Positions 6,221 to 9,143 of a stretch of 52,509 nt of DNA are shown piece by piece. Numbering within the stretch: position 1 is the stretch's first letter; each line of letters starts with the position of its first letter. The DNA comes from Parachlamydiales bacterium (GTDB lineage: Bacteria; Chlamydiota; Chlamydiia; Chlamydiales; JAEYWL01): contig JAGVLX010000019.1 in the NCBI GenBank assembly GCA_020054065.1, forward strand, positions 1-52,509. The letters are read 5' to 3'. The notes beneath the pieces were generated by a model. The model did not search any database. It was not told where the DNA came from and was given only the letters and a program-made list of their open reading frames with translations. The position numbers were made by a program, and so were the translations under genes.

Positions 6221-6786
6221 TTATCGGCGTTTGCGGGATTACCGGAGCGGGTAAATCAGCTCTCGTAGACCGATTGGCGGAAACATTGTCGGGAATAGCA
6301 GTTCATTGGGATGATTTTGACCCCATCTCTGAAGCGCCTGAAGATTATGTTGAGTGGGTTCGAACGAGTAAAAATTATAACGACTGGAAATATGACGGTC
6401 TAGCAGAGGTGTTAAAGAATTTAAAAGCGGGAAATGCAGTGAAGTGTCCGGCGACGCACCGGCTCCTTCAACCTGCACAGCATATTCTATTTGATGCACC
6501 GTTGGGATATCTGCATAAAGCGACCGGTCAATATATTGACTTTCTGGTCGGCTTGGATACTCCCTTGGATATTGCGTTAGCGCGTCGGATTATACGCGAT
6601 CTGAAACGGGGGTTAAGCACGCAGCAGCTCATTTCTGAATTAACTCTCTATCTTGAGCAAGCCCGCCCGTTGTTTATTATGCCGCCTGAAATGAAGCAAG
6701 GCTGCCATCTTTTATTGGACGGCAGCCTTTCAGTGGCTGAATTGGAGCACTTGGTCTTATCAGCATTAAATCAACGCGCTATTTAG
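6217..6786 (+). CDS. uridine-kinase-like P-loop nucleoside/nucleotide kinase
   Basis: GITGAGKS, HWDDF, ALARRIIRD; ATGA overlap with the upstream gene. Confidence 0.8.
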   Translation: MIIGVCGITGAGKSALVDRLAETLSGIAVHWDDFDPISEAPEDYVEWVRTSKNYNDWKYDGLAEVLKNLKAGNAVKCPATHRLLQPAQHILFDAPLGYLHKATGQYIDFLVGLDTPLDIALARRIIRDLKRGLSTQQLISELTLYLEQARPLFIMPPEMKQGCHLLLDGSLSVAELEHLVLSALNQRAI

Positions 6787-7925
6787 AATGCACTTAATTT
6801 AGCAACAATCGTAAGAGTGAACGGCCAGTGGGAGGCGCGCACACTCAAAAACTTGCATGCAATGTTGACCAACGTTAATACAATCAACGCCGGATAGATG
6901 GTCTCCAAGATCGGCCCCAGAAACCGCGCGATGCCCGCAAACTCCAAGGTCGAAATGGCAAAACCAATTCCCAACGTGGTTAGCAAGGCAACCGAATCGC
7001 TGATCCGATCGTTTGCGACCTCTTTTTTTAAGAAATCGGCAAAGAGAGAAGCAAGGACAATCGCGGTCGTCAAGCATGCAAAAACCACCGCAATGCACAG
7101 GCACGGTGCTGCAAATGGTCCTAATGCGTTCTGGGCAATCACCCCAAGCATTTCTTGGGGAGCAACGCCACCTAACAGCGGGGAGTAGATCCATCCGAGA
7201 AGCACAAGCACAAAATAGACAGCCGACAAGATGCCTGCGCCTACAACGGCAGATTGGCAAAAAATCGTCAAGCTTGACATATGTGGAGAATCAGTTTCAT
7301 CACGTTGTTTTAAGTGACCAATCACAAATTGAGAAAAGAAAAATGCGGCCAACAGGTCCATCGTTTGATACCCTTGAAAAAAGCCGTTTTTAAACGGCTC
7401 CCAGCTGCTTGCGCTGCTGGCTTCCGGCAGTGCTCCTTGGGTGAGTCCAAAGTAAGCAATCACACCAATCGAGATCAGGAGAAAAGGCGTTAAAACTGTG
7501 CCTAATAGGGAAACGATATGATTTTTATTGACCGCCAACAGATAGATGACACCGCACAATACCAGGCTTGATACAGGTAAGGAGAGGGTGGGAAACAGCT
7601 GGACCATGGCGCCGTGTGCCACCGTTAAACATCGTGCAAACACGCCAAACGGTCCCATCAGCGCCAACGCAAAGAACGAAAAGATAAAAACTCCGCGCCG
7701 TCCGAATGAGTTGAAAAATTGATAGATGTCGCCTTGATAAAGCAGCATGCCTAAGACGCCTAAAAAGGGGACCGCGACACCGGTCAGCAGAATGCCAAGG
7801 GCTGCCATTCCATAATGCCCGGCGCTCTCTTGTCCAACCGTGATCGGAAACACCAAATTCCCTGATCCAAAAAACATCGAGAAAAGGGCGAACCCGGTGC
7901 TTAACACAAGCCAATTTTTTTTCAT
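6783..7925 (-). CDS. brnQ: branched-chain amino acid transport system II carrier protein
   Basis: GFALFSMFFGSGNLVFP, GYQTMDLLAA and ACLTTA motifs. AGGAG SD precedes the ATG at 7925. Confidence 0.93.
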   Translation of the reverse strand: MKKNWLVLSTGFALFSMFFGSGNLVFPITVGQESAGHYGMAALGILLTGVAVPFLGVLGMLLYQGDIYQFFNSFGRRGVFIFSFFALALMGPFGVFARCLTVAHGAMVQLFPTLSLPVSSLVLCGVIYLLAVNKNHIVSLLGTVLTPFLLISIGVIAYFGLTQGALPEASSASSWEPFKNGFFQGYQTMDLLAAFFFSQFVIGHLKQRDETDSPHMSSLTIFCQSAVVGAGILSAVYFVLVLLGWIYSPLLGGVAPQEMLGVIAQNALGPFAAPCLCIAVVFACLTTAIVLASLFADFLKKEVANDRISDSVALLTTLGIGFAISTLEFAGIARFLGPILETIYPALIVLTLVNIACKFLSVRASHWPFTLTIVAKLSAF

Positions 7926-7938
7926 ATTGCTCCTACAC

Positions 7939-7974
7939 AAAAAAAAAGACCGCATCTCTCGCGAGATGCGGTCT
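7939..7974 (-). terminator. intrinsic terminator (attenuator) in the brnQ 5' leader
   Basis: Minus strand reads AGACCGCATCTC-GCGA-GAGATGCGGTCT: a 12-bp perfect stem with GNRA loop, followed by a U-run, just before the brnQ SD. Confidence 0.9.
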
Positions 7975-8004
7975 CACCTTAACCTAATCTATTCGCATAG
8001 CGAA

Positions 8005-8082
8005 TTACATAGGCCCGCACCTCGTTTGTGGGGGTCTAATAATCAAGCCAGCAGAAATAGAAACTAAAACTGTTTTACTCAT
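8005..8082 (-). CDS. putative BCAA-sensing leader peptide MSKTVLVSISAGLIIRPPQTRCGPM (25 aa)
   Basis: Translated by hand. 7 of codons 5-15 are V/L/I. Its 3' part GAGGTGCGG can pair with the terminator 5' arm. Confidence 0.75.
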   Translation of the reverse strand: MSKTVLVSISAGLIIRPPQTRCGPM

Positions 8083-8091
8083 AAGTAATCT

Positions 8092-8120
8092 ATTAAATCA
8101 TATCTTAGATTAATTTTCAA
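8092..8120 (-). promoter_or_regulatory. putative sigma70/66 promoter of the brnQ leader
   Basis: Minus strand TTGAAA-17nt-TTTAAT, 9 nt before the leader ATG. Confidence 0.5.
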
Positions 8121-8159
8121 GTTAATCTCTTGCCCGTGCCTGATAATGAGACAAGACCT

Positions 8160-9143
8160 CTAAATCCGCAACACCACCGAGCCTTCCACTTTGCCTTGCT
8201 TGATCGCTGCCAAGGCTTGATTTGCTTCTTCGAGTGAGAACACCTTTACGGAAACGTTTAACGGCACCTTTTTAACCATTTCAAAAAAATCGCGCCCATC
8301 TTGACGCGTCAGGTTTGCGACCGAGGAGATCGAACGTTCTTCCCACAACAGTCGATACGGAAACGAGGGAATATCGCTCATATGGATTCCAGCGCTCACA
8401 ACTCGACCGCCTTTTTTGACGGCCTTCAAGGCTTCGACATAGAGCGCTCCGACCGGAGCAAACAGCAGCGCCGCATCTAACTGTTCGGGCGGTTGTTCAT
8501 CCGAACCCCCTGCCCATGTGGCTCCTAACCGTTTGGCAAACGCTTGGGTTTGGACATCTCCCGGCCGCGTAAAGACGTAGACCCGTTTCCCTTGCGCCTT
8601 TGCAACCTGAATCAAAAGATGAGCCGACGAACCAAATCCATATAATCCGATGGTTTGGCAAGGCCCTGCAAGACGGTAGGCTCGATAGCCAATCAAGCCT
8701 GCACATAGAAGGGGAGCGGTGAGCACTGGATCTTTGTCCCCCGTCAAAGGGAGTACGAAATGCTCATCGGCCACGCAATACTCGGCGTAGCCGCCATTAC
8801 GGTGGTATCCGGTAAACACGGCCTGGTCGCACAAGTTCTCCCGGTTGGAGAGACAAAACTCGCACTGTCCGCAGCAGCCTCCCAGCCAAGGAACACCCAC
8901 AAATGTTCCAGCAGGGTATAGGGAGCCGTTGGTTCCAGATTTCACAACCTGTCCGACGACCTGATGGCCTAAAATCAAAGGCAGATGTGGATGGGGAAGT
9001 TCGCCATCCATAATATGCAGATCGGTACGGCACACTCCGCAGGCGAGGACTTTAATTAAGAGCTCTGCAGCTTGCGGTTCAGGAATGGGAAGTTCCTTTA
9101 AAACTAACGGTTTCCCTATTTCTTCTAACACCATTGCATGCAT
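8160..9143 (-). CDS. zinc-dependent alcohol dehydrogenase (AdhP-like, type-2 family)
   Basis: CGVCRTD, GHQ, CCGQCEFC..NLC and APLLCAGLIGY motifs. AAGGAG SD before MHAMVL at 9143. Confidence 0.93.
   Translation of the reverse strand: MHAMVLEEIGKPLVLKELPIPEPQAAELLIKVLACGVCRTDLHIMDGELPHPHLPLILGHQVVGQVVKSGTNGSLYPAGTFVGVPWLGGCCGQCEFCLSNRENLCDQAVFTGYHRNGGYAEYCVADEHFVLPLTGDKDPVLTAPLLCAGLIGYRAYRLAGPCQTIGLYGFGSSAHLLIQVAKAQGKRVYVFTRPGDVQTQAFAKRLGATWAGGSDEQPPEQLDAALLFAPVGALYVEALKAVKKGGRVVSAGIHMSDIPSFPYRLLWEERSISSVANLTRQDGRDFFEMVKKVPLNVSVKVFSLEEANQALAAIKQGKVEGSVVLRI

Follow-up and report, generated by a model that had tools for sequence, protein, structure and literature searches.

A probable leader-peptide attenuator ahead of the branched-chain amino acid carrier gene brnQ in a Parachlamydiales bacterium and its relatives

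The RNA element directly upstream of brnQ, a branched-chain amino acid (BCAA) carrier gene, in a Parachlamydiales bacterium is probably a ribosome-mediated (leader-peptide) transcription attenuator that controls this gene; from the sequence features described below, we put the probability of this reading at about 0.85. It most likely senses mainly isoleucine and mainly controls uptake. An earlier interpretation of the same DNA, made from its letters (hereafter the sequence-only reading), had proposed a leader-peptide attenuator that ties brnQ to the supply of BCAA aminoacyl-tRNAs, and this proposal is supported here by a conserved open reading frame (ORF), positioned Ile/Val/Leu codons and conserved structures. 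The mechanism is classical, but the RNA family that appears to use it is apparently previously undescribed and specific to the phylum; it extends a textbook mechanism and is not a new one. All positions below refer to the window, that is, the whole 52,509-nt stretch of DNA that was analysed.

The proposed regulated gene, brnQ, spans 6783..7934 on the minus strand, with a Shine-Dalgarno (SD) sequence AGGAG at 7934-7930 and 380 codons starting from the ATG at 7925. Its product matches the BCAA transport protein family PF05525 of Pfam over residues 7-373 (187.5 bits, cut-off 22.3). The gene on the 5' side encodes a zinc-type alcohol dehydrogenase (ADH) that ends at 8160, and no terminator-like site was found between the ADH stop and the leader. 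The leader ORF itself lies at 8005..8082 (minus), where an ATG at 8082 opens 25 codons followed by TAA (8007-8005), encoding MSKTVLVSISAGLIIRPPQTRCGPM; direct re-reading of the DNA returned the same coordinates that had first been assigned to it. A predicted promoter, TTAACT-17 nt-TATGAT (8097..8125, minus), is a consensus match only, with 9 of 12 positions in a consensus scan, and it ends 14 nt before the leader ATG. No SD-like motif was found 5' of this ATG, just as the sequence-only reading had described; the leader mRNA may, as that reading supposed, be nearly leaderless.

The codons Leu13-Ile14-Ile15 (8038..8046, minus) are proposed to be the regulatory ones, and they fall at -8, -7 and -6 in the family numbering, which counts from an Arg codon in segment 2, the strand described in the next paragraph. 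A spacing of about 15 nt between these codons and that strand had been claimed, and the last Ile codon (8040-8038) indeed ends 15 nt before 8023. The critical stretch of the window leader contains only two Ile codons, fewer than in most relatives, suggesting that the window sensor may be weak or may respond to BCAAs more broadly.

Downstream of the leader, an intrinsic terminator hairpin occupies 7946..7975 (minus), with 13 pairs (seven G-C) and a GCGA loop, and folds in isolation with -23.9 kcal/mol. It is accompanied by a nine-U run at 7939..7947 (minus), which overlaps the base of the stem in part and ends 13 nt before the brnQ ATG. The sequence-only reading had placed both parts within a base of these positions, but the stem contains 13 pairs, not 12 as it had counted. 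Segment 2, the antiterminator 5' strand CGAGGUGCGG (8015..8024, minus), lies inside leader codons Thr20 to Gly23 and is able to form 10 bp with 7971-7962. The latter strand, segment 3 (7962..7971, minus), is shared, its partner being either segment 2 or the terminator 3' arm. The core of this competing helix is the complementarity between GAGGUGCGG (8023-8015) and CCGCAUCUC (7971-7963), which comprises 9 bp including one G-U, precisely as originally described, and a C-G pair (8024/7962) lengthens it to 10 bp. The antiterminator would enclose a further hairpin, P1 (7982..8014, minus), which appeared when the leader region was folded and whose 5' strand carries the final leader codons together with the stop. 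A candidate segment 1 (anti-antiterminator; 8028..8034, minus) can form 3+3 bp with 8020-8014 and is weakly supported, since its fold reaches -6.3 kcal/mol compared with -5.9 kcal/mol for shuffles; the segment 1 hairpin of the family is likewise close to shuffles in energy (mean -6.1 versus -5.3 kcal/mol).

Folding of the alternative structures, a check suggested together with the original proposal, yielded antiterminator and terminator folds that are mutually exclusive. Without the 3' arm of the terminator, the nascent leader RNA forms the antiterminator and P1 (-27.6 kcal/mol); when segment 2 is masked, the terminator alone is left (-24.3 kcal/mol). The minimum free energy structure of the full leader RNA combines P1 with the terminator at -36.3 kcal/mol, compared with -30.9 kcal/mol when the antiterminator is enforced. 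The full-length terminator state is therefore the more stable one, implying that anti-termination must be kinetic.

Homologous elements were found well beyond the window. Among BrnQ orthologs from 40 relatives, the locus L003 (66% identity) carries a clearly homologous leader, hairpin and terminator. When positions 7930-8130 (201 nt) were compared by blastn with 400 genomes of the same order (Chlamydiota), 18 of them contained matches, at 71-87% identity and E <= 2.2e-4, that span the leader end through the terminator. A covariance model, R1, was built from an alignment of 28 units and applied to candidates from blastn (weaker matches included) and from pattern matches. R1 confirmed 43 units at 29 loci, with 44-104 bits, in 26 of the 401 sampled genomes of the order, representing nine families; this number of genomes is a floor because candidates were taken by blastn or pattern first. 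A 44th R1 match was spurious and lay on the reverse strand. The window unit scores 85 bits (E 1.4e-14) and is the sole R1 match in its 2.39-Mb genome. This match, together with the homologous units in 25 other genomes, indicates that the window element did not arise by chance.

R1 found no match in the genome holding the closest BrnQ ortholog, in the only other genome from the family to which the window belongs, or in three genomes of 1.0-1.1 Mb from family f35, and blastn of the leader region likewise matched no f35 genome. The pattern GAGGTGCGGNCCTATG, searched with two mismatches in the 401 genomes, was too loose, its reversed-pattern controls matching about equally often, and among the followed pattern matches with 0-1 mismatch, L108 and L109 were not confirmed by R1. 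A search of 7000-9000 against Rfam 15 at E <= 10 returned sub-threshold matches only, none of which reached half its gathering score; the best overlapping ones, FopS (23.3 bits, gathering 56) and Thr_leader (19.8 bits, gathering 55), mainly align the terminator.

An ATG-started ORF that enters segment 2 is present in 43 of the 43 units, with a length of 19-40 codons (median 25); because each ORF was counted from its earliest in-frame ATG, some leaders are over-extended. Its stop lies five codons (31 units) or six codons (nine units) past the segment 2 Arg codon, 40 of 43 in total. We observed that Ile makes up 192 of the 1128 leader residues (17.0%), compared with 6.8% in a background of 13,423 residues from the long ORFs of the window, whereas Val is close to its background (7.0% versus 5.8%) and Leu is depleted (6.1% versus 11.9%). 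Ile triplets occur 192 times in the leader frame and 48 and 22 times in the other two frames. Counted backwards from the Arg codon, Ile is found in 26-37% of leaders at positions -13 to -9, in 56% at -8, in 63% at -7 and in 51% at -5, compared with at most 9% at -4 and -3, and Ile, Val and Leu combined reach 91% at -7. The codons themselves vary (ATT, ATC, ATA, GTN and CTN) at these fixed positions, implying that the amino-acid class is conserved and not the bases. The element had been suggested to sense Val, Leu and Ile together; the position-specific BCAA codons uphold this in part, but the family relies mainly on Ile and then on Val, while Leu is depleted overall.

Leaders ahead of genes other than brnQ are richer in Val or Leu. 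An SD-like motif was detected in 12 of the 43 family leaders with a simple regular expression. Both the ending R-C-G-P-M and an N-terminal M-F-S/N-K recur in many units. The conservation of the R-C-G-P-M ending is best explained at the RNA level, because its codons form the antiterminator strand and the P1 outer helix. In several units the amino acid is altered while the pairing is preserved, with Arg replaced by Gly, Pro by Ser or Leu, and Met by Ile, Val or Arg.

Covariation among relatives, which had also been suggested as a check on the proposal, was found in both of the competing structures. RNAalifold analysis of 28 units revealed compensatory changes in 5 of the 17 predicted terminator pairs, including pair 66-94 (GC in 17 units, AU in 10) and pair 73-87 (CG in 19 units, UA in five). 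For the antiterminator, pairing holds in 98% of cells when 28 units are aligned and in 95.1% of 387 cells when all 43 are, compared with 33-57% when the partner is slid. Four of its nine pairs change on both sides, a level reached by none of 500 shuffles, although the double-change cells number only four. The strong sequence conservation of segments 2 and 3 makes this covariation sparse, and since the alignment is a model-fitted one of related sequences, the result is supportive rather than decisive.

The two-tier hairpin P1 is possible in every unit, with the last codons and the stop codon in its 5' strand. Over the 43 units it has a mean energy of -9.3 kcal/mol and a mean z of -1.96 (z < -1 in 36 of 43), and the sequence of its inner helix differs among units. 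At least 5 nt of segment 2 can pair with upstream bases in 35 of the 43 units. Segment 2, the P1 outer helix and a UAGGU motif (window 8024-8008 and 7986-7982; columns 6-22 and 63-67 of alignment A2) are near-invariant in the nine families. Such near-invariance exceeds what structure alone needs, and a three-way pairing constraint may account for it, although a further function is conceivable.

The gene downstream of the units is brnQ at 23 of the 29 loci, one copy being truncated; at that locus, two intact units precede a brnQ (L054:1802-2010, plus) that breaks off after about 68 codons in the available sequence. The large subunit of acetolactate synthase follows at one of the 29 loci (TIGR00118, 533 bits on a cut 440-aa piece; unit L060:1326-1417 and gene L060:3-1322, both minus), and leuC at another one (TIGR00170, 625 bits; units L066:1508-1599 and 1716-1806 and gene L066:52-1446, all minus). 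Units ahead of acetolactate synthase and leuC indicate that the family is not limited to transporters. At 4 of the 29 loci, the downstream gene encodes an ATP-grasp-like uncharacterized protein of 266-272 aa, assigned from a weak Pfam match and language-model neighbours. These genes (L104:651-1466, plus; L105:1914-2729, minus; L107:443-1258, plus; L061:1630-2427, plus) show a weak ATP-grasp_3 match and ATP-grasp/DcsG-like language-model neighbours, and each lies behind one or two units with Val-, Ile- and Leu-rich leaders. The next ORF in L104 and L111 has no Pfam match. The ATP-grasp-like protein may be a BCAA-related ligase.

Two complete leader-plus-terminator units stand in tandem before the same gene at 14 of the 29 loci (L044, L045, L048, L052, L053, L054, L056, L058, L060, L066 and L104-L107), while the window has one. 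The second unit is often of a distinct subtype, with a longer leader rich in Ile and Val. To our knowledge, tandem leader-peptide attenuators have not been described.

In a quick, midpoint-rooted IQ-TREE analysis of 53 BrnQ rows, which leaves many forks unresolved, all 20 unit-bearing rows fell into one clade of 23 rows with an SH-aLRT of 100; the unit-bearing loci L053, L054 and L056 were left out because their brnQ ORFs are cut or short. The three unit-less rows of this clade are L002 (69% protein identity) and L004, both nested among unit-bearing rows, and L033, which is basal. Their placement implies that unit-based control is dispensable. Unit-bearing BrnQ proteins from families f3, f31 and f33 are split over two subclades, with one genome (G137) represented in both, which suggests paralogy or transfer within the phylum.

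We also searched for BCAA synthesis genes in the window's genome, which is 91% complete. Neither ilvD, ilvC nor ilvB was found, with controls matched in 14 of 14 reference genomes, and leuC was represented by sub-threshold aconitase-like matches only. These results fit the argument, made in the sequence-only reading, that induction of uptake rather than synthesis would suit an auxotroph.

The other three brnQ paralogs of the same genome have no R1 match. One of them (contig C30, start L113:492) is preceded by a 37-codon small ORF (L113:263-376, plus) that ends with six Val in seven codons and has a 6-bp GC-rich hairpin behind it. The Val codons of this ORF are complementary to bases immediately 5' of the paralog start, with a fold z of -1.1 that is not significant. 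Such a Val-run small ORF was found in only two of the eight loci orthologous to L113, and the closest ortholog is without one. Two distant brnQ orthologs, at L005 (about 270 nt upstream, minus) and L010 (1381-1437, plus), are preceded by small ORFs with runs of at least six Ile codons; neither ORF has an R1 match or an intrinsic terminator. In L010, the small-ORF ATG lies about 7 nt past the end of a promoter that matches 11 of 12 positions and has a TG extension, which suggests that this leader mRNA may be leaderless.

From the sequence features, the extent to which they are conserved, the positioned codon bias and the alternative folds, we infer a transcription start, translation of the leader, a ribosome footprint geometry and a direction of regulation that together would work as follows. 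The footprint geometry is taken from the trp, his and ilv attenuators. The regulatory codons are found 5-13 codons ahead of segment 2, and in 40 of 43 units the stop comes 5-6 codons past the start of that segment; with a footprint of the assumed size, a ribosome stalled at these codons would leave the antiterminator strand free and one at the stop would cover it. The transcript would begin 5' of the 25-codon leader, and segment 2 (8024-8015) and segment 3 (7971-7962) could form a long antiterminator around P1. When charged tRNA-Ile (and, to a lesser extent, charged tRNA for Leu and Val) is ample, the ribosome would reach the stop codon at 8007-8005 and mask both segment 2 and the P1 5' strand. 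This would free segment 3 to pair with 7958-7946, and the resulting terminator would stop transcription at the U-run 13 nt before brnQ. Under low tRNA-Ile charging, the ribosome would instead stall at Leu-Ile-Ile (8046-8038), about 15-20 nt 5' of segment 2. Segment 2 would thus stay free, the antiterminator would form once segment 3 is transcribed, and the polymerase would enter brnQ. The expected outcome is induced uptake in an organism that apparently cannot make BCAAs.

Other explanations of the element deserve consideration. The simplest is that the hairpin merely terminates the upstream ADH gene, whose stop lies at 8160, and that the small ORF is a chance frame. The ADH transcript could reach the hairpin, given the lack of a terminator-like site on the way. 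However, the unit is kept at 28 other loci that all lack an ADH homolog, indicating that the hairpin is not merely an ADH terminator. Moreover, brnQ or another BCAA gene always follows the unit within 3-64 nt at those loci (126 nt in one locus), and conservation extends to the ORF, its frame and the places of its Ile codons. In the window, the hairpin lies 13 nt before the brnQ start, so that no space is left for a separate brnQ promoter. We therefore consider an ADH terminator extremely improbable. It is also hard to believe, if a little less so, that the conserved 90-nt RNA acts as a ligand-, protein- or tRNA-binding switch of the riboswitch or T-box kind with an incidental ORF. The sequence itself is unusually conserved over the nine families (segment 2, the P1 outer helix and UAGGU) and the antiterminator covariation is sparse, both as such a switch might have it. 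On the other hand, the region resembles no Rfam family even at half its gathering score, every unit has the ORF, which ends at a constant point, the BCAA codon class is fixed by position though the bases vary, and leader composition moves to Val or Leu before other genes. The ORF, codon-class and composition patterns are not expected of a ligand-binding RNA.

An attenuator with an additional function was weighed as well, either through a C-terminal arrest peptide that slows termination or through the terminated leader RNA of about 140 nt acting in trans as a small RNA. The recurrence of R-C-G-P-M and M-F-S/N-K in many units would be in line with this idea, and small RNAs derived from attenuators are described in other bacteria (PMC7968998). 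The family nevertheless tolerates amino-acid changes that preserve RNA pairing, which places the constraint on the RNA rather than on the peptide, and we regard a second function as unlikely. A wider reading, tentative and on balance doubtful, is that the units form a portable, codon-programmable cassette of environmental Chlamydiota. The same core would stand before brnQ, ilvB, leuC and an ATP-grasp ligase-like operon, with leaders retuned among Ile, Val and Leu; tandem copies would give a sharper or a two-input response, and the strict conservation of the core would reflect a further function as a termination-pausing peptide or a trans-acting leader RNA. If this cassette reading is true, leader composition could predict the substrate of each BrnQ paralog.

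The leader-peptide attenuator that we favour for the window has well-known counterparts. The ilvGMEDA operon (with its leader ilvL) and ilvBN of Escherichia coli are the classical BCAA leader-peptide attenuators. They share with the present element a short leader ORF enriched in BCAA codons, an antiterminator and a terminator that exclude each other, a U-run directly 5' of the regulated gene and, as predicted here, read-through caused by a stalled ribosome. They differ in that a biosynthetic operon is controlled there, whereas here it would be mainly an importer in an apparent auxotroph; in addition, segment 2 lies inside the last leader codons here and a segment 1 is weakly supported. R1 scored the E. 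coli ilvL region (NC_000913.3 3949500-3951500) at 18.3 bits, compared with 44-104 within the family, and BLASTP gave no alignment between the window leader peptide and E. coli IlvL. Homology to E. coli ilvL was rejected on these grounds. The resemblance to IlvL pointed out in the sequence-only reading consequently stands as an analogy of design and not as homology, and the conserved R-C-G-P-M ending is best accounted for by RNA pairing.

BrnQ-type transporters are also among the targets of T-boxes in Firmicutes. That system acts on the same gene class, and uncharged tRNA or low charging leads through anti-termination to uptake; unlike the present element, it senses uncharged tRNA directly by RNA-tRNA pairing, without translation of a leader. 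No T-box match was found at the window with Rfam 15 (7000-9000). T-box regulation in Firmicutes is treated in PMC2494555, and the literature has brnQ under T-box, CodY or TyrR control. Outside Proteobacteria, BCAA leader-peptide attenuators are described for the ilv-leu operon of Staphylococcus aureus, with a leucine-rich attenuator peptide (PMC5794164), and for ilvBNC of Corynebacterium glutamicum (PMC11857589). According to their abstracts, both control biosynthesis, and they belong to other phyla and other RNA families; tandem copies go unmentioned in these abstracts. Within the same phylum, a trpL leader and attenuator have been predicted for the trpRBA operon of Chlamydiaceae (PMC3937554), likewise a proposed leader-peptide attenuator, but this one is Trp-specific and unrelated in sequence to the present family. 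A full-text literature search outside subscription journals brought up no leader-peptide attenuator described for brnQ or BCAA genes in Chlamydiae.

Chlamydiota have few known mechanisms of regulation, and the family offers a conserved candidate sensor of aminoacyl-tRNA supply in this phylum. If the attenuator works as proposed, it implies transcription-translation coupling in these bacteria. The units make up a new cis-regulatory RNA family, whose working covariance model can be used in the annotation of chlamydial genomes, and this family may provide a handle on the specificity of BrnQ paralogs. Taken together, we propose that leader-peptide attenuation can, as these sequences suggest, reach beyond biosynthesis and may govern amino-acid uptake in an apparent auxotroph.
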